Assembly: GCA_019313605.1 (NCBI GenBank)
Contig: JAFDAW010000017.1
Coordinates: 1 to 34,790 of the forward strand
DNA from: Deltaproteobacteria bacterium
GTDB lineage: Bacteria > Myxococcota_A > UBA9160 > SMWR01
Direction: 5' to 3'
Length of the DNA stretch: 34,790 nt
Part shown: in pieces, positions 1 to 12,440 of the stretch
How the letters are laid out: every line of letters starts with the position of its first letter
How positions within the stretch are numbered: position 1 is the stretch's first letter
Made by a program: the position numbers and the translations under genes
Notes under the pieces: model-generated
Databases searched by the model: none
The model's input: the letters and a program-made list of their open reading frames with translations, nothing else
Told to the model about the DNA's origin: nothing

Positions 1-51
1 CCGACCATCGCAGCGGGTGAAATCGAAAGCGCATTCGCGCTTCTCGCCGAG

Positions 52-1248
52 ATGACCCGCGGCTTCGCGGAATCGCAGGATCTCGAGGCGACCCTCGAGC
101 AAGCACTGACCTCCGTCGCCAAACACCTAGACGCGGAGGCGGGCTCTCTTTGGCTGCTCGATCTCGAGCGCGAAGAACTGCACTGCCGGGCGTCCGTCGG
201 CCCCAATCCCATCACGGGTCTTCGTCTACCGATGACGAAGGGAATCATCGGTCGGAGCATCGCGGAGAACACCTGCCAGTGTGTGTTCGATGTCAGCAAG
301 GATCCGGCGTTTTCGACCAAGGCCGACGACGAGAGCGGGATGGTCACCCGCTCACTGTTATGCGCTCCGATGAGTTTTTCAGACCAACGGATCGGCGCGA
401 TCGAACTCATCAACCAGCGCGGTGGAGACGGCCACTTCCATCAAAAAGACGTCCATCCGCTGCAGGTTCTGGCATCGTCGGCCGCACTCGCGATTGCGAA
501 CAACCGCATGGCGGCGTCGCTCGTCGAGGCCGAAAGAGCCCGCCGCGAACTCGAGCTGGCGGCGGAGATCCAGCGCAATCTGCTTCCCACGGCGCGACCC
601 GATCCATTCCCCGTTCAGGGGCTGAACGTCCCCGCCCGAACGGTTTCCGGAGACTTCTTCGATTTCATTCCCATTGCGGACGGGCGTATCGGTTTTTGCC
701 TGGGCGACGTTTCGGGCAAGGGCATCAACGCTGCAATGCTGATGGCCAAGACCGCCAGCCTCTACCGATGCATGGTCAAGACGATCCCGAGCCCGGCCGA
801 ATTGCTTCGCCTACTCAACGATGAGATCTGCGAAACGGCCACGCGCGGCATGTTCGTCACGATGGCGGCGGGCGTCTACGATCCGACAACCGGCGCGATT
901 CGCCTCGCCAACGCGGGCCACGAACCGCCCGTCTGTCACACGGAAGGTCGCTTTTCGGTCTTCGAAGCCGGAGCGCCGCCACTCGGTATCGTACCGGGTG
1001 TCGAAATCCCGGAGGTGGAACTGGATTTGAACGGCGGCTCGCTCTACATCTTCTCGGACGGTCTCACGGAGGCCGAAACGAAATCGGGCGATCAACTCGG
1101 GAGCGCCGGATTCGAAGCGCTGCTGCCGAAATTCGCCGATCTGCCACTCGCGGGCCGCGTGGAGGCCATCGTGGACAGCGTCAGCCAGCTCGCGCTCAAA
1201 GACGATCTCACGCTGCTCGCAGTCTCAGACGAGGCGCGGTCTCGCTGA
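52..1248 (+). CDS. GAF-domain sensor fused to a PP2C/SpoIIE-type serine phosphatase (RsbU/RsbP-like)
   Basis: 398-aa ORF. N-terminal GAF-like region; C-terminal PP2C/SpoIIE hallmarks (AAEIQRNLLP, SGDFFDF, GDVSGKGINAAMLMA, ANAGHEPP, SDGLTEA, DDLTLL). The frame stays open back to base 1, so the true start may lie upstream of the window. Confidence 0.85.
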   Translation: MTRGFAESQDLEATLEQALTSVAKHLDAEAGSLWLLDLEREELHCRASVGPNPITGLRLPMTKGIIGRSIAENTCQCVFDVSKDPAFSTKADDESGMVTRSLLCAPMSFSDQRIGAIELINQRGGDGHFHQKDVHPLQVLASSAALAIANNRMAASLVEAERARRELELAAEIQRNLLPTARPDPFPVQGLNVPARTVSGDFFDFIPIADGRIGFCLGDVSGKGINAAMLMAKTASLYRCMVKTIPSPAELLRLLNDEICETATRGMFVTMAAGVYDPTTGAIRLANAGHEPPVCHTEGRFSVFEAGAPPLGIVPGVEIPEVELDLNGGSLYIFSDGLTEAETKSGDQLGSAGFEALLPKFADLPLAGRVEAIVDSVSQLALKDDLTLLAVSDEARSR

Positions 1249-1673
1249 TGTCCGAATCCCGCTCCAAACGGGTGTTACAGCTGCGTTTTGCGGCGCGGGC
1301 TGCGGAACTCAAAGGGGTCCGCGAAGCCGTGCGGGAGGCTGTGAAGGGCTGCGGGTGCAGCGCCAAATCCTCTGGGGACATCGTGCTCGCGACCGATGAA
1401 GCCTGCCAGAACATCATTCGCCACGCCTATGGCGGAGAGTCGGATGACGTCATCGAATTCGAGATCGAACACCGGGGCGACGTCTTGGTCTTCTCACTGG
1501 TCGATCACGCGCCCGCGATCGACCCGAGCCAGGTCAAGCCACGCGACCTCGACGACATTCGGCCCGGTGGGCTCGGTACCCACTTTATCCGCCGAGTCAT
1601 GGACGAAGTGGAGTTCCTGAATCCCCCCTCGGGACGCGGGAATCTGTTAAGAATGGTGCGACGAATCGACTGA
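1248..1673 (+). CDS. RsbW/SpoIIAB-like anti-sigma-type serine kinase (HATPase_c)
   Basis: 141 aa. N-box DEACQNIIRHAY, DHAP, G-box GGLGTHFI. The ATG overlaps the upstream stop (TGATG at 1246-1250). Confidence 0.8.
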   Translation: MSESRSKRVLQLRFAARAAELKGVREAVREAVKGCGCSAKSSGDIVLATDEACQNIIRHAYGGESDDVIEFEIEHRGDVLVFSLVDHAPAIDPSQVKPRDLDDIRPGGLGTHFIRRVMDEVEFLNPPSGRGNLLRMVRRID

Positions 1674-1696
1674 GGGCCCCACCTCGAGAGGAACTC

Positions 1697-2029
1697 ATGG
1701 AACACACAGTGAGAGAAGAGCAGGGAAACGTCGTCGTAAGTTTCAAAGGCGACGTAGATCTCGAGCACTCCCCCAAGGCGCGTGAAGTTCTCCTGGGGTG
1801 TGTGGAAGAGGGGCAAGACGTCTTCGTCGATCTCTCGGCGGTCAGCTATATCGACAGCTCCGGTGTCGCGAGCCTCGTCGAAGCCTTCCAGGCCTCCAAG
1901 AAAAAGGGCACGCGCTTCGCACTGGTTGCGGTGAACGCGGCCGCGATGCGGGTACTCGAACTCGCGCGGCTCGACAAGGTCTTTACGATTCACGAAAGCC
2001 TTTCCGAAGGAATCAGTGGCGGCGCCTGA
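1697..2029 (+). CDS. STAS-domain protein (anti-sigma-factor antagonist, SpoIIAA/RsbV-like; possible MlaB analogue)
   Basis: 110 aa. Conserved phosphorylatable motif SYIDSSGVASLVE (DSSG at residues 53-56). GAGAGGA Shine-Dalgarno upstream of the ATG. The 3' end overlaps the next gene by 14 nt. Confidence 0.85.
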   Translation: MEHTVREEQGNVVVSFKGDVDLEHSPKAREVLLGCVEEGQDVFVDLSAVSYIDSSGVASLVEAFQASKKKGTRFALVAVNAAAMRVLELARLDKVFTIHESLSEGISGGA

Positions 2030-2831
2030 TCAAAAGAGCTCGCCGACGCAGGTCCTCGAATCGGTGGGACGGGGTGCGGCCCAGTTCGCAGGCGCGTTCG
2101 GCTTCGGCGCCCATCTCTTCTTCCAATCCCTCTACTGGCTCATCATGGGTCGCAGCAAGGGCCAGCGGGTTCGCGCCGAGCCTCTCTTCGCCCAGATGAT
2201 GGTGATCGGAGTCCTGGCGATCCCGATCGTGTCGATGCTCTCCGTGGCGATCGGCATCACGCTCTCGATGCAGGGCATCAACTCCCTCGAAAAATTCGGC
2301 GCTCAACACCAGGTAGTTTTCATGGTCGCGCTCTCGGTCACTCGCGAGTTCGGACCCCTGATCACGGGGATTCTCGTCGCGGGCCGATCCGGCTCCGCAC
2401 TCGCTGCGCGCATCAGCACGATGGTGATCAGTCAGGAAATCGACGCGCTCAAGGTCATGGGCATCAACCCGGTCCGCTACCTCGTGGTGCCGGCCCTGAT
2501 CGGAATGATGATCGTACTTCCGTGTTTGACCTTGTGGTCGATCGGCATCTCGTTGGTTGGGTCAGCGTTTTACGTGGCGCCGCAGATCGGCACGACCATG
2601 GGGGCGTACTTCTCACAGATCAACGCGTCGATCGACGCCGAAGACCTCGCCCACGGCCTGACCAAGAGCCTGATCTTTGCCGTGTTGATCACGATCGTCG
2701 CCGTCGTCGATGGAATTTCCGTCAAGGGCGGCGCGGAAGGTGTCGGCCGCGTGACGACATCGGCTGTCGTTCACGGAATCACGGCAATCGTGTTGACGGA
2801 CATGGTCTTCGTATTCATGACGACGAGTTGA
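2016..2831 (+). CDS. MlaE-family ABC transporter permease
   Basis: 271 aa, multi-pass membrane protein with MlaE/Ttg2B-like sequence. GTG start preceded by GAAGGA. Sits directly upstream of the ATPase. Confidence 0.85.
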   Translation: MAAPDQKSSPTQVLESVGRGAAQFAGAFGFGAHLFFQSLYWLIMGRSKGQRVRAEPLFAQMMVIGVLAIPIVSMLSVAIGITLSMQGINSLEKFGAQHQVVFMVALSVTREFGPLITGILVAGRSGSALAARISTMVISQEIDALKVMGINPVRYLVVPALIGMMIVLPCLTLWSIGISLVGSAFYVAPQIGTTMGAYFSQINASIDAEDLAHGLTKSLIFAVLITIVAVVDGISVKGGAEGVGRVTTSAVVHGITAIVLTDMVFVFMTTS

Positions 2832-2832
2832 G

Positions 2833-3642
2833 ATGACACAAGCCCAGACCCCGCAGCAGCCCGTGATCGAGGTGAACAACCTCGTCACCCATTACGGCGA
2901 GCGCAAGATCCTCAATGATGTGAGCCTGACGATCCAACAGGGCGAGATCATGGTGATCATGGGCGGCAGCGGATCCGGCAAGAGCACCTTGCTCCGACAC
3001 ATGGTGGCGTTGGAAAACGCCACCTCGGGCTCGATCAGGCTGCTCGGAAACGAGCTGAGCAAACTCAGCCAGATGGAGTTCTACAAGCTGTGCCGGAAGA
3101 TCGGCGTTTCGTTTCAGGGTGGAGCGCTCTTCAGCTCGTTGACCGTGATCGAAAACATCATCCTGCCCCTTCACGAGCACACCGACCTCGACCGGATGAC
3201 GATGGAGATCATGGCGCGGATGAAACTCCAGGTCGTCGACCTCGCCCCGTTCGAAGATCTGATGCCCGCGCAACTCTCGGGCGGCATGATCAAACGAGCA
3301 GCCATCGCGCGAGCCATCGTGATGGATCCGTCGCTGCTATTCTTCGATGAACCCTCGGCGGGACTCGATCCGGTAGTCTCTTCTGCGCTCGACGAATTGA
3401 TCCTGGAATTGCGGGACGCCATGCAAATGACGATCGTCGTCGTAACCCACGAACTCGACAGTGCCTTCAAGATCGCAGATCGGATCACCGTGCTAGACAA
3501 GGGTGAGATCTTGATCGTCGGGACCGTCGACGAGGTGCGAAACAGCAACAATGAGCGGATCCAGAATCTTCTCAATCGGCGATTCGAGGAGGAAGAACTG
3601 GATCCAGATGAATATCTGAGGCGACTCATGGGCCAGAGTTAG
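2833..3642 (+). CDS. MlaF-like ABC transporter ATP-binding protein
   Basis: Walker A GGSGSGKST, signature LSGGMIKRAAIARA, Walker B LLFFDEPSAGLD, H-loop VTHEL. Starts 1 nt after the permease stop. Confidence 0.9.
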   Translation: MTQAQTPQQPVIEVNNLVTHYGERKILNDVSLTIQQGEIMVIMGGSGSGKSTLLRHMVALENATSGSIRLLGNELSKLSQMEFYKLCRKIGVSFQGGALFSSLTVIENIILPLHEHTDLDRMTMEIMARMKLQVVDLAPFEDLMPAQLSGGMIKRAAIARAIVMDPSLLFFDEPSAGLDPVVSSALDELILELRDAMQMTIVVVTHELDSAFKIADRITVLDKGEILIVGTVDEVRNSNNERIQNLLNRRFEEEELDPDEYLRRLMGQS

Positions 3643-3654
3643 GATTTCGAATCG

Positions 3655-4572
3655 ATGAAAGACGCCAATCGAAACTACGTTGCGGTGGGAGCTTTCGTGC
3701 TCTCGATGCTGGCTGCGGTCGTTTTGTGGTTCGCGGCCCTTTCGGGTCTAGCCGTATCCACGGACTCGTACTTCATCCTCTGGGACAACGTGATGGGTCT
3801 GAAGCCCGGCACCCAGATCCTGTTCGAGGGCTACCAGATCGGCTTGATCGAGAACATCGAACGCTCCCCGGAGGCGGATTCGGGTGGTCCAAATTACCGC
3901 GTCGAGATCGAAGTCGAGAAGGATTGGCCGATCCCCGTGAGCGCAGAGGCGGAGACGACCGCGCCGTCCTTTCTGGCTGCGCTCGTCGTCAACATCGAAG
4001 CCGGCGATTCGGACGAGATCCTCGCACCGGGAAGCGTGATTCGAAGCAAGGAGCAGGGAGATCTGCTCGCCGCAGCGAGCGACGCGATGTCGAAGATTTC
4101 GGAAGTGCTCGACTTCATGAAGCCCAGAATCGAAGAGATCACGAACTCCGTCGGCCTGGTCCTCAGCGAAGAGAATGCCGAGCAGATTCAATCCATGCTC
4201 GAGACGATGAACGCCCGGGTCAAAGAGATCCTCAGCGACGAGAACGCGGAGAACATCGGGGTCATCCTGACCAACCTCGGCAACGTAGCTCGGGACATGT
4301 CAGATGTGACCGGAGGCCTGCAGACTTCAAAGGCCCAGGTCGACAACATTCTCGCGACGATCGACGGATTGATCGACAGCAACAGCGGTGACATTGGGAA
4401 GTCGCTCGCCGATCTTCAGGCATCGCTCGAAGCTGTGTCGCGGCATATCGACGCCATCGCGAGCAACCTGGAGGACACGACTCGAAACACCAAGGAATTC
4501 AGCGAGCAGATCCGCAGCGATCCGAGTGTGCTGCTGCGGGGTCGCGATGCACCCGACGACGGTGCCAAATGA
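3655..4572 (+). CDS. MlaD/MCE-domain protein with long helical C-terminal extension
   Basis: 305 aa. N-terminal TM anchor, MCE-like core (LKPGTQILFEGYQIGLIENI), then an Ala/Leu/Asp/Ser-rich helical tail. Confidence 0.8.
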   Translation: MKDANRNYVAVGAFVLSMLAAVVLWFAALSGLAVSTDSYFILWDNVMGLKPGTQILFEGYQIGLIENIERSPEADSGGPNYRVEIEVEKDWPIPVSAEAETTAPSFLAALVVNIEAGDSDEILAPGSVIRSKEQGDLLAAASDAMSKISEVLDFMKPRIEEITNSVGLVLSEENAEQIQSMLETMNARVKEILSDENAENIGVILTNLGNVARDMSDVTGGLQTSKAQVDNILATIDGLIDSNSGDIGKSLADLQASLEAVSRHIDAIASNLEDTTRNTKEFSEQIRSDPSVLLRGRDAPDDGAK

Positions 4573-5186
4573 TGACGAATCGGATCTCGACGAATCGGAT
4601 AGGGCTGTTGCTCATCGGCGCGGGATGCTGGCTGATGCTCTGGGGTTGTGCGTCGGGGCCCGCCCCGATCGACCACTACTACCGCATCGACGCAGGGGTT
4701 CCGGACGCACCGGCTGCAAAGAAACTGGAGGGAAACCTGCAGATCGATCGATTGCGTGCGGATGCCCTCACCGGCAAACGCCAAATCCTCTACAAGGAGA
4801 CCGGAAACTCTTCGAAGATCCACCAGCATCCCTACCAGCGCTGGTCGGATCCGCCGACGATCCTGCTTCAGACGGAACTGGTTTCATTCTTGAGCGTTGC
4901 GGCGGCCGCTGATTCCGTGATATCGGCGACGGCCCGTGTGAAGGCCAACTACGCGGTATCTGGCCGCATTCGAGAATTCGAGCGGGTGCTCGGCCCCAAG
5001 GTGCACGTGATCGTGGAAATCCAGCTCGCCGCCACGAGTGCCGAAAGTGGCGAGATCCTCGTCAACCGCATCTACCGCGAGGAGCGAGACGCGGCAAGCG
5101 ACTCTGTCGAGGCCTCCGTGGTCGCGTTCAACGAAGCCGTACACATCATTTTCGAACAATTCCTCGCAGACCTGACCGGCCTCTGA
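4569..5186 (+). CDS. ABC-type transport auxiliary lipoprotein (PqiC/YmbA, DUF330-like)
   Basis: 205 aa. Lipobox LWGC after a hydrophobic signal, and a HYYRI motif right after the signal, typical of this family. ATGA overlap with the MCE gene. Confidence 0.7.
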   Translation: MMTNRISTNRIGLLLIGAGCWLMLWGCASGPAPIDHYYRIDAGVPDAPAAKKLEGNLQIDRLRADALTGKRQILYKETGNSSKIHQHPYQRWSDPPTILLQTELVSFLSVAAAADSVISATARVKANYAVSGRIREFERVLGPKVHVIVEIQLAATSAESGEILVNRIYREERDAASDSVEASVVAFNEAVHIIFEQFLADLTGL

Positions 5187-5257: not shown

Positions 5258-5333
5258 CGTGAGGGGTGGGGCCGGGGGGCCTGTGCGCTCCAACCCCATG
5301 TCGCTTACAGGCCCCCCGGCCCCACCCCTCACG
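5258..5333. repeat. Perfect 27-bp inverted repeat (hairpin) with 22-nt loop, GTGAGGGG core
   Basis: 5258-5284 (CGTGAGGGGTGGGGCCGGGGGGCCTGT) is the exact reverse complement of 5307-5333. Intergenic, downstream of the mla-like operon. Confidence 0.9.
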
Positions 5334-5407: not shown

Positions 5408-5486
5408 CCGGATGATCGGGGTGTGAGGGGCCTCCGCGCGGAATGGTTCACTGAGCACGGAGGCCCCTCACGCCGCGATCATCCGG
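5408..5486. repeat. 29-bp imperfect inverted repeat (hairpin) with 21-nt loop, GTGAGGGG core
   Basis: 5408-5436 pairs with 5458-5486 at 27 of 29 positions (one G.G mismatch, one T.G). Shares the GTGAGGGG...CCCCTCAC core with the 5258-5333 element. Confidence 0.85.
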
Positions 5487-5568: not shown

Positions 5569-6102
5569 GTGGATCCCAACGAAGCACTTCTCACAATCGC
5601 CGAAATCGCAATCGCGACCATCGGCTTTGCTGGAATCATGTCGGCATTGCGGCCGAGCTCTTCCCATTCGGTGGACGCGATGCATCGACTGCGGCTTCGC
5701 CTGATGGTCGAAGCCAGTGCGAGCGTGATGATCTTCGCGTTTCTCCCCTTCGTACTCCAGGGACTGGTCGACAGCGAAAGCGTCTGGACTTTCGGAAGCG
5801 GGATTCTCGCCGTTACGTCCCCGCTGCTCGTGGGCAGTATCTACGTGCGGCAGCGGCGCCTCTTTGGCTCTGGGCTGATCCGCGAAACACTGCTCTTCGA
5901 CACCTTCGTCATGGCCAGTGCCGTGGTGGTCGAAATCGCCTTGATCGTGAACTGCCTCGGCATATTTTTCGAGTCTCACTTCTCCGCCTATCTACTGGGC
6001 GTGCTGTTTCCGCTCGCCGTGGCGGTCGCGATGTTCATCCGCGCCATTTTCGCAGCCGATGCACACGATCGCGGCGTTACCCCTTCGGACTCCGACGACT
6101 GA
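5569..6102 (+). CDS. Hypothetical integral membrane protein
   Basis: 177-aa ORF with GTG start preceded by GGAGAG. Several hydrophobic helices, GC-rich third codon positions. No recognisable family motif. Confidence 0.55.
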   Translation: MDPNEALLTIAEIAIATIGFAGIMSALRPSSSHSVDAMHRLRLRLMVEASASVMIFAFLPFVLQGLVDSESVWTFGSGILAVTSPLLVGSIYVRQRRLFGSGLIRETLLFDTFVMASAVVVEIALIVNCLGIFFESHFSAYLLGVLFPLAVAVAMFIRAIFAADAHDRGVTPSDSDD

Positions 6103-6184
6103 AGCTTCGATTCATGGATCAGCGCGACCGTCTTGATGCGCGCAAGATTCTGGATCGGGTTTGACGCGGACTTTTTTGAACGGG

Positions 6185-6658
6185 TTAGTAGGTGCCGGCG
6201 AGTTTCGAGTGGTCCCAGGAGATGATCCGGTTGGGGGTGACGCGGATCAGGATGCGCTTGAGGGCGGTTCTCTTTACGTCTTCGTTGATTACGGCGTGGG
6301 CTTCGGCGCCCGCTTCCGTGGTCTCTTTTTGGGATGCGGCTTCTAGTGTGGCGATAATGGCTTCGGTGTCATCGCTCAGTTCGGCGGTGCCGTAGATCAC
6401 CACGCCCTTGAGTTCCGCGTATTCGCGGCCGGATTCGACGAGCAAGCTGACGCGCGGATCGCGCTGCAGGTTCTTGATCTTCTGCGTTCCGCGGAAGGTC
6501 GCCATCGAGATCGCGAAATCATCGTCGGAGACGAACCACATCGGCATCGGGTGGGGCATGCCGTCCGGGCCAATGCTGTTCAAGATGATCGTCTTCTGGG
6601 CGCGCAGGAAAGTGCGGATTTCCGCGTCCGTCATGCGGATCTGATCGCGTCGGGGCAC
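6185..6658 (-). CDS. Pyridoxamine 5'-phosphate oxidase (PPOX) family / putative F420- or FMN-dependent protein
   Basis: 157 aa with the typical PPOX-family N-terminus (EIRTFLRAQKTIILNSIGPDGMPHPMPMWF). GTG start with GGAGAG Shine-Dalgarno. 27 nt downstream of the reductase gene. Confidence 0.7.
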   Translation of the reverse strand: MPRRDQIRMTDAEIRTFLRAQKTIILNSIGPDGMPHPMPMWFVSDDDFAISMATFRGTQKIKNLQRDPRVSLLVESGREYAELKGVVIYGTAELSDDTEAIIATLEAASQKETTEAGAEAHAVINEDVKRTALKRILIRVTPNRIISWDHSKLAGTY

Positions 6659-6685
6659 GTTCTCTCCGTTGGCCGCGCAGGGCCC

Positions 6686-7768
6686 TCAGTCGGGGTATTC
6701 GATCGTCACCTTGCCACTGACGCAGCGCGCCTGGCAAGTCAGCACCCAACCCTCTTTCAGCAAGCTCTTCGAGAGGCAATCGTTGACGTCCATCTTTACC
6801 TCTCCTGCCATCAGCTTTGCCATGCAGCAGGAGCAATACCCCTCTTCGCACGAGAAGGGGGCGTCGAGGCCCGCAGCCCGCACCGCCTCGAGAATCTTCT
6901 CGCCTTTCTTGTAGGGGATTTCTGTGGTTTCGCCGTCGAGAACGATCGTGATCGCCTCGGACGCGTAATCGCCACCCACTTCCGGGGCGGGCTCCTCGAC
7001 ATGCGACTCCGGATCGTGCGGCGACACGAAGCGCTCGACGTGAACGAGATCGTGGGCGACGTGCAACTCTCGAAGCGCCTCCTCAACGATGGCCATGAAG
7101 GGCCCGGGGCCACACAGATAGAACTCCGATTCCACGTCGGAGCCGACGTGGCGCTTGGCGCTGTCGAGATCCAGAAACCCGTCGACATCATCGTGGCAAT
7201 AGACGATCTCGAGTCGCTCGGGATGAGCGCGAGCGAGCTCATCGAGTTCGGCTTTGAAGATGACCGAACTCTCATCCCGGTTCGCGTAGAAGAGTTTCAT
7301 CGCGCGTTGGGAAGTGGCGAGTGCGGATTTGATGATCGAAATCACCGGCGTGATTCCGCTTCCCCCAGCGAACAGGATGATCTTCCGATCCGCTTCGTCG
7401 AGCACGAAAGAACCCGCCGGGGGAACCACCATCAGGAGCGTTCCCGGCTCGACGCCATCGTTCATCCAGTTCGAGATCCGACCGTCGCTGACACGCTTGA
7501 CGGTCACCTTGTACTCGCGATCGGCATCCGGAGAACTCGCCAACGAATAGCTGCGCGTCAGCACACAGCCCGCGTAGGGAATCTTGAAGCTCAAGAATTG
7601 ACCGGCTCGGTAGCGGAAGCGCTCAGTGAGTTCGGCTGGAATTTCAAACACGATCGAACGCGAGTCACTCGTCTCATCGATCACCCGCTTGACGCGGAGC
7701 TCTACGCAGGATGCAGTCGCATCTCGCCAATCGGCTGCCGAAACACCCGCTTGCTCGAAGTCCGTCAT
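6686..7768 (-). CDS. FNR-family oxidoreductase with C-terminal plant-type 2Fe-2S ferredoxin domain (PaaE / phthalate dioxygenase reductase-like)
   Basis: 360 aa. FAD motif RSYSLAS, NAD(P) motif LFAGGSGITP, 2Fe-2S cysteines CEEGYCSCCMAKL...LTCQARC. Confidence 0.85.
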   Translation of the reverse strand: MTDFEQAGVSAADWRDATASCVELRVKRVIDETSDSRSIVFEIPAELTERFRYRAGQFLSFKIPYAGCVLTRSYSLASSPDADREYKVTVKRVSDGRISNWMNDGVEPGTLLMVVPPAGSFVLDEADRKIILFAGGSGITPVISIIKSALATSQRAMKLFYANRDESSVIFKAELDELARAHPERLEIVYCHDDVDGFLDLDSAKRHVGSDVESEFYLCGPGPFMAIVEEALRELHVAHDLVHVERFVSPHDPESHVEEPAPEVGGDYASEAITIVLDGETTEIPYKKGEKILEAVRAAGLDAPFSCEEGYCSCCMAKLMAGEVKMDVNDCLSKSLLKEGWVLTCQARCVSGKVTIEYPD

Positions 7769-7920
7769 CGTCGGCGCGTGGCTCCCCGCTCGCTGTATCG
7801 CATATCGATGGATCCGCGGATTCTCGCTGACCCGCGCTGCACGCGAGCCGGGCAGGCTAGCGCAACCCCGCCGCGGAGCTCAAGAAATCCCCGCAGTCCC
7901 ACACGAGGCGAGCCGGAGCA

Positions 7921-8646
7921 TCAATCGGCGGGAACGTAGAGATCGACGACGGCGCCGTTTTCGAGTTGCCGCTCGAGCAACGACCAGATCTCTCGCGCAG
8001 CTTCCTCGGGATCGCGGCCCTGATCATTTTCGTGAATGCCGACAAACATCTCGATGCTCGGGAAGTCGTCACTCGACGCCTCACGAATCTCTCGCTGCAT
8101 CGCGGTCTCCACGATTCCCGGAGCAACCGCGAGCAATCGACAGCGGTCTCCTCGGCGGGCCTGCTCGGCACCGGCCGTTCGCACCCATTGATCCATCGCG
8201 GCCTTGCCCGCGCAGTACGCCGACCAACCTTCGAATACCGTAAACGCCGCACCGGAGCTGATCATCACGACGTGACACTCGACCTGGGTCTTGCGAGCGG
8301 CGTGCAGGAACGCATCCCCGAGTATCTGCGGCGATGCGCTGTCGAGCAGAACCTGTCTCGTGTATGCATCCGGTGGAACTTCGCCCGCAAAGCCGATCGG
8401 CTGGAGCGTCCCGGCCGAATGAATGAAGACAATGCGCTCGCCCGCGAAGTCTTTAATTTCCCTTGCAAAGAGATCCGCGACTCCGCGCCACGCTTCGGGA
8501 TCGGAGAGATCGGCCTCGAAGTGCTCGTATCCCTCCAGCTCGCGCCGGCTGATGTTGATGACGCGCGCGTCGGAGTAGGGAACAACCCGCGCCATCGCGG
8601 CGCCGATCCCGCTGGAACCGCCGGTAATGAAAACGAGGTTTGACAT
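7921..8646 (-). CDS. SDR-family NAD(P)-dependent oxidoreductase
   Basis: TGGSSGIG cofactor motif right after MSNLVFI; catalytic YCAGKAA (YxxxK). The ORF-track start at 8982 adds about 112 non-SDR residues, so ATG 8646 is preferred. Confidence 0.8.
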   Translation of the reverse strand: MSNLVFITGGSSGIGAAMARVVPYSDARVINISRRELEGYEHFEADLSDPEAWRGVADLFAREIKDFAGERIVFIHSAGTLQPIGFAGEVPPDAYTRQVLLDSASPQILGDAFLHAARKTQVECHVVMISSGAAFTVFEGWSAYCAGKAAMDQWVRTAGAEQARRGDRCRLLAVAPGIVETAMQREIREASSDDFPSIEMFVGIHENDQGRDPEEAAREIWSLLERQLENGAVVDLYVPAD

Positions 8647-8838
8647 CACGGCCGCAGTGTAGGAAAACCCGTTGTACGGCGAACCCATGGCCGATCCGTG
8701 CGAGAAGGCCCCGGGCGAGATAACCTCTGCCGGAGCGTGTGAGCCAGTCGCCCCCCGGATGCTTCGAGCGGCCCTCGGGTTCACAGCCCAACTCAACCCG
8801 AACCGCGGATGCACCGTGTGCAATGAGGTTTCGAGGCC

Positions 8839-9219
8839 ATGACGCGATCGACCCCCATCTGGCCCGTCGTCCTCATCTGCGTGTTCGCGGCATCCGCGAG
8901 CGCCGACGTGGCCGAGCGCTCGCTCACCGTAACCGCCACGGCCTACAATTCGCTTCCCGAGCAGACCGACGATGAGCCCCACCTGGCGGCCTGGGGAGAT
9001 TCACTCGCCCCGGGCATGAAGGTGATCGCGGTTTCCCGCGATCTCATTCCCGCGGGTCTCGATCGTCGCACCCCGGTAAAGATCGAGGGGTTTCCGGGCG
9101 TGTACCTCGTCCTCGACAAGATGAACAAGCGCTGGGAGAAGCGCATCGACATCTATATGGGACACGATCTCGAGGCGGCGCGAGCCTGGGGTAAACGGCA
9201 AGTGGAAATCAGCTGGTAG
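8839..9219 (+). CDS. Secreted 3D-domain (MltA/RlpA-type double-psi beta-barrel) protein
   Basis: 126 aa. Signal peptide ending ASASA. TATAYNSLPEQTDDEPHLAAWGD and IDIYM resemble 3D-domain proteins. Confidence 0.65.
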   Translation: MTRSTPIWPVVLICVFAASASADVAERSLTVTATAYNSLPEQTDDEPHLAAWGDSLAPGMKVIAVSRDLIPAGLDRRTPVKIEGFPGVYLVLDKMNKRWEKRIDIYMGHDLEAARAWGKRQVEISW

Positions 9220-9277
9220 ATCCCGTGAACGCTGACGGATCGCATGACTCTCTCTTCGGTTTCGGTTTGTAACACGC

Positions 9278-10021
9278 ATGGGCACACTCGGTTGGATTCT
9301 CTGCAGCGGATTTTTGATGAGCATGATTGCGCTCGTGGGCGCCGTCACGTTCGCACTGCCGGATCGCACCCGTGAGCAGCTGATCCTGCCACTCGTCGCT
9401 TTTTCTGCCGGATCGCTCCTCGGTGGCGCGCTGCTCCACATGATCCCGGAGGCCGTTGAGCGAAGTGGCGGCGCGGCGACCGTCTACCTCTGGGTGTTGG
9501 CTGGCTTCACCTCGTTTCTGGCCTTCGAGCAATTCCTGCATTGGCACCATTGGCACAGCGATGCGCCCGAGGTGAAGAGCCCGCTGAGCCACATGATGGT
9601 GATCGGCGACAGCGTCCACAATTTTCTCGGCGGCGTCGCGGTCGCCGCCGCGTTCATCGTCGACATCCGACTCGGCACGACCACCTGGCTCGTCGCTGCA
9701 GCTCACGAAGTTCCGCAGGAGCTCGGCAAGTACGGTGTGTTGATCCACGGCGGCTGGAAGCGCGGTCGCGCCCTCGTCGTGAGTTTTCTCTCCTCGCTGA
9801 CTTTCCTGATCGGCGGAATCTTCGCCTACGTGGTGTCATTCGAGTTCGACATCGGGTTCCTGGTGCCCTTCGCGGCCGGCAACTTCCTCTACATCGCCGC
9901 GTCGGACCTGGTTCCAGAGGTGAACCGACACCATCACCTGGGCGTCAATCTGCTCCACTTCGCATCCTTCTCCGCGGGAATTGCTCTGCTTCTCGCAATT
10001 CACATTATTTCAGGGAAATAG
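9278..10021 (+). CDS. ZIP-family divalent metal transporter (ZupT-like)
   Basis: 247 aa, multi-TM. Signature HEVPQELGKYGVLIHGG plus His-rich HWHHWH loop. Confidence 0.85.
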   Translation: MGTLGWILCSGFLMSMIALVGAVTFALPDRTREQLILPLVAFSAGSLLGGALLHMIPEAVERSGGAATVYLWVLAGFTSFLAFEQFLHWHHWHSDAPEVKSPLSHMMVIGDSVHNFLGGVAVAAAFIVDIRLGTTTWLVAAAHEVPQELGKYGVLIHGGWKRGRALVVSFLSSLTFLIGGIFAYVVSFEFDIGFLVPFAAGNFLYIAASDLVPEVNRHHHLGVNLLHFASFSAGIALLLAIHIISGK

Positions 10022-10186: not shown

Positions 10187-10492
10187 ATGGTGCATATCAT
10201 GGCCGTAAGAAAGAAAGCCTCCAAGAAGAAGAAGGTCGTACGGAAGAAGAAGGCCGTGCGAAAGAAGAAAGCCGTACGCAAGAAGGCCGGCTGGGGTGGA
10301 CGCCGAAGAGGCGCGGGCCGACCGCTGGGCACGGGAACGGGCCCGTCCAAGCACGCGCGAATCAATCGCGTCGTAGCGATGCTGAGCAACGATGAGCTGA
10401 AGATCCTACAAGCGCACGCGAAGCGTGAGAAGCTGCCCCTCGGGACGGCCGCTTATCGGATCATCGCGCAGTCGTTGCGCCGCCTCCGCTGA
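10187..10492 (+). CDS. Small lysine-repeat protein with ribbon-helix-helix-like C-terminus
   Basis: 101 aa. N-terminal KKKxVR repeats encoded by 18-nt tandem units (about 10202-10291). The C-terminal pattern RINRVVAMLSNDELKILQAHAKREKLPLGTAAYRIIAQSL fits strand-helix-helix. Start could be ATG 10199. Confidence 0.55.
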   Translation: MVHIMAVRKKASKKKKVVRKKKAVRKKKAVRKKAGWGGRRRGAGRPLGTGTGPSKHARINRVVAMLSNDELKILQAHAKREKLPLGTAAYRIIAQSLRRLR

Positions 10493-10621
10493 CCCGGGCG
10501 TTCCGAACCGGACCACGGGCGGCGCGGCGCGATCGTTCCTCCAGTACGCCGGCGATCTGCCGGTGGGCGTGGAGCCAGGACGCGGGCGCCGCCCATCGCG
10601 AATGGAAGATTCTAGAAACCT

Positions 10622-10646
10622 CGCGCGGGTGAAGTGTGCCCGCGCG
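10622..10646 (-). terminator. GC-rich hairpin between convergent genes, possible terminator for the MORN gene
   Basis: CGCGCGGG / CCCGCGCG 8-bp stem with 9-nt loop, 10 nt past the minus-strand stop. Followed on the minus strand by only a weak T-rich run (GGTTTCTAGAATCTT). Confidence 0.3.
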
Positions 10647-10656
10647 TCGGCTCGGA

Positions 10657-11283
10657 TCACTCCTCGGAAAAGGTTTCGACCGAGATGCGATCGCCGTCGA
10701 CGAATTCGGCGACCTTGCGCTTCGCTCCATCCGGATACCAGCCCGTCCAGGTCCCGTGGAATTGGCCCTTTCGAAAGGCTCCCTCCGCTTCCATCTGGCC
10801 GTTTTCAAAATAAGCGACCGCGGGGCCGTCCTTTTCTCCGTCGACATAGTGTTCGAAGAATTGAAGCTGCCCGTCGAGATACCAGCGCATCATTTCCCCA
10901 TTGCGCTTGCCGTTCGCAAAATCCTGCTTGAGGAGCTTGATTCCCTCCTCTCCCCAGGTCGAAAACGTTCCGTGGCGCTGATCGTCGGCGTAGTGTCCCT
11001 CTTCCGCGAGTTGACCGTTGATATGCCAAAGCTTGAAAACGCCGTTCAACTTGCCTTCGTCGAAGTGCGCTTCGGCCTTTGGGTCACCGCCTTCGTACCA
11101 GGAGAGACTGGGACCGTGCTGGGTCCCGTCGGAAAGTTCACACCACGCCTTGAATCCGTCGGGAGGCGACTGCCCATGGACCACGGCCTCACTCGGGCAT
11201 TGGATTGCCTCTGCCAGCGCAGAACGGGGATCGAGCAGGGCCGCAAATAGACAGACGGCGATCCACAGTGTGATTCGACACAT
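10657..11283 (-). CDS. Secreted MORN-repeat (YwqK-like) protein
   Basis: 208 aa. Signal peptide, then repeated G-x-x-x-G-x-W/F-x-x-W/Y-x-x-x-G units (GKLNGVFKLWHINGQ, HGTFSTWGEEG, GKRNGEMMRWYLDGQ, GEKDGPAVAYFENGQ, GQFHGTWTGWYPDG). Confidence 0.75.
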   Translation of the reverse strand: MCRITLWIAVCLFAALLDPRSALAEAIQCPSEAVVHGQSPPDGFKAWCELSDGTQHGPSLSWYEGGDPKAEAHFDEGKLNGVFKLWHINGQLAEEGHYADDQRHGTFSTWGEEGIKLLKQDFANGKRNGEMMRWYLDGQLQFFEHYVDGEKDGPAVAYFENGQMEAEGAFRKGQFHGTWTGWYPDGAKRKVAEFVDGDRISVETFSEE

Positions 11284-11346
11284 ACCGGTCCCAGGGTATC
11301 ACTTTGCGCCCACCCCATGGGTTGGGTGGGTGATCGCGATCAGCAG

Positions 11347-11469
11347 GCGAAGCTGATGGATTCGCTTGCGTCGTCGCACAACCCCATTCTGGGGTCGTGC
11401 TCCTAGCTGGCGAATCCTTCGGATTCGCTTGCGTCGTCGCACAACCCCATTCTGGGGTCGTGCTCCTAG
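11347..11469 (+). repeat. Two tandem copies of a structured two-hairpin intergenic repeat (REP-like)
   Basis: A 49-nt block (GGATTCGCTTGCGTCGTCGCACAACCCCATTCTGGGGTCGTGCTCCTAG) is identical at 11358-11406 and 11421-11469. Each holds the hairpin GCACAACCCC-ATTCT-GGGGTCGTGC. Copy 2 also has GCGAATCC-TTC-GGATTCGC. Confidence 0.9.
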
Positions 11470-12440
11470 GGTGTGATGATCAGCTTGCCGTGGGTCTTTC
11501 GAGAGGCGAGTTCTCCGAGCGCAGAGGGAAGATCTTCGAGCGGGTAGGTGCGGAAGATCAGCGGCTTGATCAAGGCCTCGCGGTAGAGGGCGAAAAGGCC
11601 CTCGAAGGTCTCCGGCACCCTTTGGGGCTCATTCTCCAGATAAGCCCCCCAATGGATGCCCGTCACCGCAATGTTCTTGAGCATGATGCGATTCGTCTTC
11701 ACCTCCGGGATGCGGCCGCTTGCAAATCCGACGACGAGAAGCCGGCCGTTCCAGGCGATGCACTTGAGAGATCGGTCGAATACGTCACCACCGACGGGAT
11801 CGTAGATGACGTCTGCACCGCTGCCGCCCGTGATCTCGTGCACGCGGGCCACGAAGTCGTCCACCCGGTAGTCGATCACTTCGTCGGCACCGAGTTCGCG
11901 CGCGATCTCGAGCTTATCCACCCCGCCCACCGTCGCGATCACGCGGGCTCCGAGCGCCTTGCCGATCTGCACGGCTGTGCTTCCGACACCGCCAGCGGCG
12001 GCGTGAACCAGGAGCGTCTCGCCGGCTTGCAGATTCGCGCGAAAAATCAGCGCCGCATAACTGGTCGGATAGATGATCGGAATCGCTGCGCCTTCCCCGA
12101 ACGACATCTCATCGGGCATCCGGTGGACATCAGCGGCAGGAACGACCGCGGTCTCCGCAAAACCGCCGATCTGCGTCCCGGCGAGAACGCGATCACCCAC
12201 CGCGAATCCCTCGACTCCCGCGCCGAGCGCTTTCACCACGCCCGCGATCTCGCCGCCCGGCGTAAACGGGAAATCGGGTTTGACCTGGTATTTGCCCTGG
12301 ACGATCAAGGTGTCGAAGAAGTTGCAACCGGCGGCGCGTACTTCGATCTGGAGCGCGCCCGGTCCGGCTTCGGGTTCGGGGATCTCCGACACCCGAAGTT
12401 CGGCGGGTTCCATATAGTGGTCGACTGAGATTGCGCGCAC
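11466..12440 (-). CDS. qor: NADPH:quinone oxidoreductase (zeta-crystallin / MDR family)
   Basis: AAGGVGSTAVQIGKALGARVIATVGG nucleotide motif. The N-terminus RAISVDHYMEPAELRVSEIPEPEAGPG aligns with typical Qor starts. GTG at 12440 sits 9 nt after GGAGG. The ORF-track start at 12506 would run into the repeat. Confidence 0.85.
   Translation of the reverse strand: MRAISVDHYMEPAELRVSEIPEPEAGPGALQIEVRAAGCNFFDTLIVQGKYQVKPDFPFTPGGEIAGVVKALGAGVEGFAVGDRVLAGTQIGGFAETAVVPAADVHRMPDEMSFGEGAAIPIIYPTSYAALIFRANLQAGETLLVHAAAGGVGSTAVQIGKALGARVIATVGGVDKLEIARELGADEVIDYRVDDFVARVHEITGGSGADVIYDPVGGDVFDRSLKCIAWNGRLLVVGFASGRIPEVKTNRIMLKNIAVTGIHWGAYLENEPQRVPETFEGLFALYREALIKPLIFRTYPLEDLPSALGELASRKTHGKLIITP

Follow-up and report, generated by a model that had tools for sequence, protein, structure and literature searches.

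A GAF phosphatase, RsbW-like kinase and STAS protein encoded in one conserved unit with an Mla-type lipid transporter: a partner switch whose output may be an ABC transporter

Seven same-strand genes at the beginning of the window (the whole stretch of DNA analysed here, 34.8 kb) encode, as assigned from open reading frames and Pfam/NCBIfam matches, a GAF-PP2C phosphatase, an RsbW-like kinase, a STAS protein, MlaE, MlaF, a long MCE protein, and a PqiC-family lipoprotein (Table 1). We consider it rather likely that these genes make up one conserved unit, in which a partner switch has the MlaFE ABC transporter, and not a sigma factor, as its output. Because the module fronts an Mla-type transporter in hundreds of species with no sigma factor nearby, the STAS protein probably serves this transporter as a subunit under phosphorylation control. 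The fuller reading, which we regard as evenly poised, is that an RsbV-type STAS protein has been recruited as an MlaB-like subunit of MlaFE, and that the GAF phosphatase and the RsbW-like kinase gate inter-membrane lipid transport post-translationally in many Alphaproteobacteria, Gammaproteobacteria, and Myxococcota. A reading of the sequence alone had not recognised the arrangement as a characterised one, and our literature search likewise found no paper describing a GAF-PP2C/kinase/STAS module together with an Mla transporter.

Table 1. Features of the seven-gene block, with positions in the window
Product	Positions	Strand	Basis or remark
GAF-PP2C (SpoIIE-type) serine phosphatase	1..1248, first Met at 52	+	GAF + SpoIIE/PP2C domains; 5'-truncated at window edge
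RsbW-like GHKL serine kinase, 141 aa	1248..1673	+	HATPase_c_2 (PF13581), 2.2e-27
Single-domain STAS protein, 110 aa, Ser54 in DSSG, proposed MlaB equivalent	1697..2029	+	TIGR00377
MlaE-type ABC permease, 271 aa	2016..2831	+	PF02405, 5.3e-65
MlaF-type ABC ATPase, 269 aa, conserved C-terminal tail	2833..3642	+	NCBIfam MlaF, 193.8 bits
Long MCE/MlaD protein, 305 aa	3655..4572	+	PF02470 + TIGR00996
PqiC-family (ABC_trans_aux) lipoprotein, 205 aa	4569..5186	+	PF03886, 8.7e-12

The tight packing of the block, on which the sequence-only reading had been built, was recovered at every claimed junction when the letters were re-read. The stop codon of the phosphatase gene and the start codon of the kinase gene overlap as TGATG (1246–1250), the kinase and STAS genes are separated by 23 nt carrying a Shine–Dalgarno-like GAGAGGA, and mlaE starts with a GTG at 2016, 14 nt inside the STAS gene (2016–2029), with GAAGGA just 5' of it. 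Further downstream, a single nucleotide (2832) lies between mlaE and mlaF, and the MCE stop and lipoprotein start codons overlap as ATGA (4569–4572). For a transcript boundary within 1673–2016 there is neither a signal nor room in the sequence, the flanking gaps being 23 nt and −14 nt.

The phosphatase frame is open to base 1 of the window, and in two near-identical contigs (L001 and L084) it starts ~33 codons 5' of Met-52, giving a full protein of ~431 aa, so that the window edge truncates the gene. The earlier description of a phosphatase with a GAF domain thus stood as to its domains, with Pfam placing GAF at residues 10–148 and SpoIIE at residues 210–391 (PF07228, 8.5e-42), and was corrected as to its start, which precedes position 52. 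The metal-binding and catalytic residues Asp201, Asp204, Asp219, Asp336, Asp384, and Asp385 are kept in 70–72 of 72 orthologs. The top PDB matches of the GAF domain are GAF domains that bind cyclic nucleotides, those of CyaB2 (1ykd, 2e-19) and PDE2A, and the signal of the phosphatase may be a cyclic nucleotide. The kinase has RsbW as its top PDB match (6m36_A) and RsbW models as its best HMM matches. Its predicted N box (Glu51 and Asn55), Asp86, and G2 box (Gly107-Gly108-x-Gly110) are invariant in all 78 orthologs, so that the claim of intact N and G boxes holds for these two; the predicted G1 box reads Asp86-x-Ala88-Pro, without a glycine, again in 78 of 78. The phosphatase and the kinase form a pair: the two are fused into one protein, with the kinase domain at the phosphatase C-terminus, in 53 of the 80 loci inspected, and the same GAF-SpoIIE-HATPase_c_2 fusion occurs in 120 of the 120 top database matches. 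Fusions of kinase and STAS also occur (P0136). Module genes carry the source annotations RsbU and anti-sigma B antagonist.

The STAS protein retains the phosphorylatable DSSG motif attributed to it (Asp53-Ser54-Ser55-Gly56), which is present in all 83 sequences compared, and conservation across classes is 95% or more in its helices α2 and α3 and in all catalytic motifs. It scores above the cutoff of TIGR00377, the anti-sigma-factor-antagonist superfamily (76.6 bits; cutoff, 53.45), and fails the curated MlaB model NF033618 (24.2 bits; cutoff, 90). Among PDB entries, the closest structures are RsbV and SpoIIAA, and the match to MlaB (E, 0.0097) covers residues 43–89 only. An AlphaFold2 model (pLDDT, 90.3) shows a complete SpoIIAA fold, β5 (residues 97–99) and α4 (residues 102–107) included; Foldseek searches with this model ranked RsbV first (TM, 0.81–0.88), with MlaB chains appearing from rank 40 on (TMq, 0.55–0.62). 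By sequence and by modelled fold, the protein is of the RsbV type and not a member of the MlaB family. Its Ser54 nevertheless aligns with Thr52 of Escherichia coli MlaB.

The transporter genes begin with an MlaFE core. The MlaE domain occupies residues 58–266 of the permease, in which Pfam finds no STAS domain. For the ATPase, the best NCBIfam match is MlaF, at a score under the equivalog cutoff of 441, and the top PDB matches are the MlaF proteins of A. baumannii, P. aeruginosa, and E. coli; Tyr261 and Leu265 of its C-terminal tail align with the same residues of E. coli MlaF, and 66 of 67 orthologs retain them. The MCE protein consists of an N-terminal anchor, a single MCE domain (residues 38–117), and a helical C-terminal region of ~190 aa, and has a mycobacterial Mce protein (8fed_B) as its top PDB match. 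Its ortholog in L083 gives a faint Helical_needle match. The lipoprotein has a signal peptide ending in LWGC and matches the ABC-type transport auxiliary lipoproteins 13hr and 13hq. The reported lack of MlaC beside a PqiC-like lipoprotein was confirmed, neither an MlaC nor an MlaA homolog being found across the 34.8-kb window.

A species-level genome scan returned at least 578 relatives of the STAS protein, and the locus counts given here cover the best 80 of these at least 578, which belong to Myxococcota, Alphaproteobacteria, and Gammaproteobacteria. These loci preserve the order (GAF-PP2C)-(kinase)-STAS-MlaE-MlaF-MlaD-lipoprotein, and mlaE follows the STAS gene in 77 of the 80, always between −14 and +93 nt relative to the STAS stop codon; the arrangement is not peculiar to this genome, but extends over three bacterial classes in this neighbourhood survey. 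The median STAS–mlaE gap is 8 nt (78 loci), and the 14-nt overlap recurs in 13 further loci. A more distant STAS protein (P0183) is also surrounded by the same seven genes. The module tracks the ABC core rather than the periplasmic parts: in nine loci it stands before the genes of a canonical Mla system (short MlaD, MlaA, MlaC, and convergent MlaF) instead of the long MCE and PqiC-like proteins. One locus (L078) retains STAS-MlaEFD-lipoprotein with the enzymes absent nearby. No flanking gene family beyond the block occurs in more than 22 of the 80 loci. Some STAS relatives at ~100 bits were found in other contexts, and in one locus (L068) the module is followed by a CHASE2 cyclase, with no mlaE there. 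A cultured Thalassospiraceae isolate is among the species with the operon, and Telmatospirillum carries the kinase form.

The nearest biochemical precedent is MlaB of E. coli. Thr52 of MlaB is central to the interface with MlaF, and its replacement by Glu weakens binding; MlaB is needed for MlaF to remain on MlaE; and Tyr261 and Leu265 of MlaF pack between the two proteins (PMC7367683). The present STAS protein resembles MlaB in being a small cytoplasmic STAS protein encoded in an mla operon beside mlaE and mlaF, in having a Ser/Thr at the SpoIIAA phosphorylation position (Ser54 here, Thr52 in MlaB), and in the partner ATPase, which is 269 aa long and whose C-terminal tail bears the corresponding Tyr and Leu. 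It differs in being RsbV-like, whereas MlaB is minimal (four strands and three helices, without β5/α4); in being encoded upstream of mlaE, the MlaB gene standing at the operon end; and in having a kinase and a phosphatase of its own. Phosphoregulation had been suggested for MlaB by Kolich et al., with no kinase known to them (PMC7367683). A second precedent is the Mpc (Mla-Pqi chimeric) system of Brucella abortus, MpcEFDA, in which a STAS domain is fused to the MpcE N-terminus (PMC12436622). Both systems combine a core of MlaE and MlaF with a long, MlaD-like MCE protein whose C-terminus is helical, a PqiC-like lipoprotein gene in last place, and a STAS domain associated with the permease, and both lack MlaC and MlaA (here, within the window). 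In the present operon, however, the STAS protein is a separate 110-aa product of a gene overlapping mlaE and following those of a GAF-PP2C phosphatase and a kinase, neither of which is reported for Brucella (PMC12436622). That the STAS protein belongs with the transporter is seen in L078, which lacks the enzymes yet keeps the STAS gene, and agrees, by analogy, with the Brucella STAS–MlaE fusion.

Based on these comparisons, the following switch can be proposed. Unphosphorylated STAS would stand in for MlaB: its helical face, with Ser54 at the centre, would bind the MlaF-type ATPase at the helical subdomain, and from there STAS would stabilise or activate the ATPase on MlaE. The RsbW-like kinase would bind the same face and phosphorylate Ser54, whereupon STAS would leave the ATPase and lipid transport would fall. 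Binding of a small ligand, possibly a cyclic nucleotide, to the GAF domain would prompt the GAF-PP2C phosphatase to strip off the phosphate, and transport would resume. We infer all three of its essentials: that STAS binds MlaF, that the phosphorylated state means off, and which ligand is sensed. The E. coli T52A variant of MlaB is non-functional (PMC7367683), and the site therefore does more than a simple on/off switch predicts; moreover, with an RsbV-like fold including β5/α4, docking of the STAS protein on MlaF could differ from that of MlaB.

The regulatory proteins themselves have familiar counterparts. With RsbU/RsbW/RsbV and SpoIIE/SpoIIAB/SpoIIAA the module shares the three protein families, the DSSG motif, the kinase N and G2 boxes, and the PP2C metal-binding aspartates, but it differs from them in having no linked sigma factor, a GAF sensor, and an ABC lipid transporter downstream. 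SypE of Vibrio fischeri is a bifunctional kinase/phosphatase regulator with a STAS substrate, SypA, and a non-sigma or mixed output. The fused form found in 53 of the 80 loci is similar to HsbR of P. aeruginosa, a single polypeptide with PP2C and RsbW-like kinase domains and an adjacent STAS substrate, HsbA, and in systems of this type the phosphorylation state of the STAS protein sets the output (PMC6482189, PMC5085249). In the HsbR/HsbA and SypE/SypA systems a receiver domain does the sensing, and the targets are FlgM, a diguanylate cyclase, RpoS, or biofilm polysaccharide, whereas the present module has GAF sensing and genes wired to MlaFE.

Three other explanations were weighed against the proposed switch. 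The kinase, rather than STAS, might touch the transporter, blocking MlaF or MlaE in the manner of an anti-sigma factor until unphosphorylated STAS captures it and lifts the block. Partner switching canonically works in this way, and the idea accounts equally well for the conserved co-location of the three regulators with mlaFE and for the strong conservation of the kinase. We nevertheless think it unlikely: the kinase is tethered to the phosphatase in those 53 loci, L078 has a STAS protein but no kinase beside its transporter, the MlaB-contacting tail motif of MlaF is conserved, and the only known precedents linking STAS and ABC proteins are direct MlaB–MlaF binding and the STAS–MlaE fusion.

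Slightly less probable still is a classical partner switch, in which the kinase is the anti-sigma factor of a distal sigma factor, and the mla genes are co-transcribed or an envelope-stress regulon target. The fused Rv1364c of Mycobacterium tuberculosis, which regulates SigF, counts in its favour, as do the TIGR00377 score of the STAS protein, its closeness to RsbV and SpoIIAA structures, the RsbW-type matches of the kinase, and the source annotations. The genomic surroundings argue otherwise. The claim that the block holds no sigma factor gene was borne out for the whole 34.8-kb window, which has no sigma-like ORF, and no SigB/SigF-type ORF is present in the 80 inspected loci, an ECF-like ORF occurring in only four of them, on the opposite strand and 3.8–5.5 kb away. 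Nor is a cognate sigma factor encoded just upstream of the window, where L001 and L084 have a 98-aa ORF followed by divergent MsrP/MsrQ-like genes, and the Pfam-labelled flanks of L083–L086 contain none within 8–10 kb. The linkage of STAS to mlaE is specific, through overlaps or single-digit gaps in three classes and two transporter architectures, and STAS remains with the transporter where the enzymes are missing (L078). Transporter output, as first suggested from the sequence, is thus supported by the lack of a linked sigma factor, the gene order in 77 of 80 loci, and the lack of room for a transcript boundary; the phosphatase–kinase fusions, the occurrence of the module before two Mla architectures, the STAS gene of L078, the Ser54–Thr52 alignment, and the conserved Tyr261/Leu265 tail add to this. 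Finally, it is very improbable that STAS is a constitutive structural MlaB-like subunit with phosphorylation serving another target, or that the adjacency reflects mere co-expression of two unrelated functions. In favour, HsbA (PMC6482189, PMC5085249), SypA, and further STAS proteins have a range of targets other than sigma factors, and in L068 the module stands beside a nucleotide cyclase gene. Against this, the block has no third gene family conserved with it, and the phosphorylation site sits at the position central to the MlaB–MlaF interface, so that phosphorylation could hardly spare the MlaF contact.

The operon thus offers a candidate kinase, phosphatase, and sensor domain at the right place in hundreds of species. 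The finding also cautions that thousands of genes labelled 'sigma-B regulation protein RsbU' or 'anti-sigma B factor antagonist' are probably unrelated to sigma B. Because the operon occurs in a cultured Thalassospiraceae isolate, and its kinase form in Telmatospirillum, the question can be approached by standard biochemistry. If the proposed switch is true, it would be the first example in nature of an ABC transporter controlled through phospho-STAS, an RsbV-type STAS protein convergently filling the role of MlaB, and would provide the kinase and phosphatase that the proposed phosphoregulation of MlaB has lacked. It would also add a new class, the ABC transporter, to the outputs of partner switching, and would explain how lipid transporters of the MCE/Mla kind are turned on and off.

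Seven same-strand genes had been proposed at the left end of the window, and domain searches with the seven plus-strand ORFs returned the named domain in each case. The close junctions claimed between them are also present, namely the TGATG at 1246–1250, the 14-nt overlap of the STAS and mlaE genes, the 1-nt gap at 2832, and the ATGA at 4569–4572. Translation of mlaE starts at a GTG (2016) that falls within the STAS gene by 14 nt and has GAAGGA just before it, and the 23-nt gap between the kinase and STAS genes carries a putative ribosome-binding site (GAGAGGA) as read from the sequence. The domains assigned to the phosphatase at 52–1248 stand, but the start at 52 does not: the frame is open to base 1 of the window, and near-identical metagenome contigs place the start about 33 codons before Met-52, for a full protein of 431 aa, so that the gene is cut by the window edge. 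Similarly, the kinase retains the N box and the G2 box, whereas its G1 box is a glycine-less D-x-A-P that is fixed in 78/78 orthologs.

Genes of the partner-switch and transporter operon in the window
Gene product	Position	Strand	Basis
GAF + SpoIIE/PP2C phosphatase	52–1248	+	domain match
HATPase_c_2, RsbW-like kinase	1248–1673	+	domain match
STAS protein	1697–2029	+	domain match
MlaE	2016–2831	+	domain match
MlaF-like ABC ATPase, 269 aa	2833–3642	+	domain match
MlaD/MCE protein, 305 aa	3655–4572	+	domain match
ABC_trans_aux (PF03886) lipoprotein	4569–5186	+	domain match

As the sequence-only reading had it, the window contains the PqiC-like lipoprotein gene (PF03886) and no MlaC; it also contains no MlaA and no second STAS, kinase, or PP2C gene. 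The promoter scan returned no promoter-like sites, and the terminator scan gave eight terminator-like matches against a shuffled mean of 4.8 (sd, 2.3), which is not clearly above expectation. Two long GC-rich hairpins lie directly 3′ of the last operon gene, at 5258–5333 (27-bp stem, fully paired; 22-nt loop) and 5408–5486 (32-bp stem, 91% complementary; 15-nt loop). The sequence of their first arm has no second copy within the window, and they may be terminators or REP-like elements.

The arrangement is widespread. Database searching gave 3465 relatives of the STAS protein, the closest 120 being 66–100% identical, and when one genome per GTDB species was scanned by pattern, at least 578 species had a relative. 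The best 80 of these loci were fetched, and the seven window proteins were searched against their six-frame ORFs. The loci derive from Myxococcota/‘Deltaproteobacteria’, from Alphaproteobacteria (Rhodospirillales and others), and from Gammaproteobacteria, with two in bins of unexpected label, and show the same gene order almost throughout. The survey of gene neighbourhoods thus shows that the arrangement is not unique to this genome, mlaE directly following the STAS gene in 77/80 loci at a distance of −14 to +93 nt (median, 8 nt; 78 loci including the additional contig L001). In the three exceptions, the STAS gene is followed by the contig end (L021), by transposases (L026), or by a cyclase (L068). 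The L026 transposase genes, of the IS110 (8741–9757) and Mutator (10274–11506) families, lie directly after the STAS gene, with a large MASE1-PAS-GGDEF-EAL protein beyond them; this operon was apparently disrupted through insertion sequences. In the gammaproteobacterial locus L068, a CHASE2-adenylate/guanylate cyclase gene (5705–7939, +) replaces mlaE after the fused GAF-PP2C-kinase and STAS genes, with FHA, PP2C, and Hanks-kinase genes as neighbours. A more distant STAS protein (107 bits to the family profile) is again encoded in a full seven-gene operon, and two other relatives at ~100–117 bits occur in unrelated gene contexts, indicating that the Mla-linked STAS clade is large but bounded. 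The two bins of unexpected label, Opitutales and Spirochaetales (L005 and L043), contain full operons with proteins 61–78% identical to Myxococcota STAS, which suggests mis-binning or recent horizontal transfer. A tblastn search of the plasmid collection with the fused phosphatase-kinase yielded no operon; its two matches, in Burkholderia and Caballeronia, were weak and partial (~32% identity). A complete operon of the fused type is present in a cultured isolate, Thalassospiraceae bacterium LMO-JJ14.

Flank clustering revealed no further conserved partner gene; because no flanking family is common to more than 22 of the 80 loci, the conserved unit is exactly the seven-gene block. In L001 and the syntenic 66-kb contig L084, the phosphatase gene is preceded by a 98-aa ORF (L001, 1348–1644, +; L084, 7846–8142, +) and then by divergent MsrP/MsrQ-like genes. 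This ORF has no Pfam match and is absent from the wider locus set. Sixteen Rhodospirillales loci carry a same-strand PhaC (polyhydroxyalkanoate synthase) gene 2–4 kb upstream of the operon (e.g., L052, 4304–6148, +; L083, 5895–7691, +), as a lineage-specific synteny.

The module varies chiefly in how its enzymes are joined. In 53/80 loci, GAF-PP2C and kinase form a single protein of ~570–620 aa with the kinase at its C-terminal end, tying both enzymes to one substrate, and the fused gene ends a median of 9 nt before the STAS gene. The best 120 database matches of the fused protein are all GAF-SpoIIE-HATPase_c_2 proteins, among 4529 matches at E ≤ 1e-20. Apparent N-terminal extensions of the phosphatase in L014, L074, and L017 match no Pfam domain and are probably ORFs called too long. 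The exhaustive representative search gave no STAS–MlaE fusion in the best 150 of the nearest STAS relatives, but did show the STAS domain joined to the kinase, to another STAS domain, and to TLC/MFS transporters. The TLC/MFS-type cases (P0152, P0179, and P0259; 830–844 aa) carry a close STAS relative at the C-terminus, a further instance of an RsbV-like STAS domain coupled to a transporter. In three loci (L023, L029, and L046), mlaE is preceded by a tandem pair of STAS genes; those of L023 (7600–7950 and 8001–8333) encode proteins 48% and 64% identical to the window STAS, both with DSSG, and such pairs may divide the work, one copy facing the kinase and the other the transporter.

Conservation was counted over ~70–83 orthologs per protein, and is high wherever catalysis or recognition would be expected. 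Glu51, Asn55, Asp86, and the GGxG motif of the kinase are present in 78/78 orthologs, and the PP2C aspartates in 70–72/72. The MlaF-like ATPase has intact Walker A, signature, Walker B, and H-loop motifs, and its Tyr261 and Leu265, located at the E. coli MlaF positions, occur in 66/67 orthologs. The best solved relatives of the GAF domain are cyclic-nucleotide-binding GAFs (CyaB2, 2e-19, then PDE2A and PDE5), and Asn121, Lys122 (Gln in the window), Phe129, and Asp133 are conserved, a pattern reminiscent of the NKFDE motif. This likeness is a lead rather than a result; together with the cyclase of L068, it hints at a cyclic-nucleotide input.

The STAS protein keeps the phosphorylatable DSSG motif, as claimed: Asp53, Ser54, Ser55, and Gly56 are present in 83/83 sequences, and helices α2 and α3 are nearly invariant. 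In its predicted structure (pLDDT, 90.3), the SpoIIAA topology is complete, with β5 and α4 present. Foldseek places B. subtilis RsbV at the top (TM, 0.81–0.88) and E. coli MlaB only from rank 40 (TMq, 0.55–0.62); sequence searches give TM1442 (1e-12), RsbV (7e-10), and MlaB (0.0097), and the protein scores above the cutoff of the anti-sigma-antagonist superfamily model but below that of the MlaB model. It is therefore not a member of the MlaB family. Ser54 nevertheless aligns with Thr52 of E. coli MG1655 MlaB, which is central to the MlaB–MlaF interface in the MlaFB crystal structure; the T52E substitution weakens binding, and MlaF is lost from MlaE without MlaB (PMC7367683). The operon also resembles Brucella Mpc in having MlaE, MlaF, a long MlaD ‘needle’, and a PqiC-like lipoprotein without MlaC or MlaA, but differs in that Mpc carries its STAS domain on the permease itself (PMC12436622), whereas here the STAS protein has its own gene.

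The reading with the most support has the STAS protein fill the role of MlaB in these transporters. In nine loci, mostly of Gammaproteobacteria, the fused enzyme and STAS genes precede MlaE, a short 148-aa MlaD, MlaA, MlaC, and a convergent MlaF, with no other STAS gene in the locus. As the same module stands before two transporter architectures, it goes with the MlaFE core rather than with the periplasmic machinery. Where the block is broken, the STAS gene remains with the transporter: in L078, STAS-MlaE-MlaF-MlaD-lipoprotein is kept with no kinase or phosphatase nearby, and in Telmatospirillum (L055) the kinase is present without an adjacent PP2C. Against the alternative that the kinase, rather than the STAS protein, contacts the transporter, the linkage pattern discriminates weakly. 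It argues more clearly, especially through L078 and the two transporter architectures, against a third, unlinked target of the module and against a distal sigma factor under classical partner-switch control. For sigma factors, all ORFs of at least 50 aa were screened by phmmer with RpoE, SigB, SigF, RpoH, and FliA as queries. No sigma-like ORF was found in the 34.8-kb window, in agreement with the claimed absence from the block, nor upstream of the phosphatase in L001 and L084, nor within 10 kb of the operon in LMO-JJ14. Only 4/80 loci contain one, each ECF-like and on the opposite strand 3.8–5.5 kb away, one being confirmed by Pfam.

With the STAS protein acting in place of MlaB, the RsbW-like kinase and the GAF-PP2C phosphatase would together fix the phosphorylation state of Ser54, and this state would decide whether the protein docks on the ATPase. 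If phospho-STAS behaves like its counterparts in SpoIIAA/SpoIIAB and MlaB T52E, it would bind neither kinase nor ATPase, so that kinase activity would lower transport and the ligand-activated phosphatase would raise it. Of this scheme, gene content, conserved motifs, linkage, fusions, and the lack of a linked sigma factor are observed; STAS–MlaF binding, the direction of the switch, and the ligand are inferred.

SypE/SypA and SiaABCD are partner switches with non-sigma outputs. HsbR/HsbA is another (PMC6482189, PMC5085249). As STAS regulation of MlaF is likewise known, the module joins two known kinds and founds no new category; in full-text searches of bioRxiv preprints and open-access articles, no account emerged of Mla or MCE transporters with a linked kinase/phosphatase/STAS module. 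Phosphoregulation of MlaB was raised as an explicit open question in the MlaFB study (PMC7367683). The module, widespread and probably mis-annotated in databases as sigma-B regulation, makes that question directly testable.
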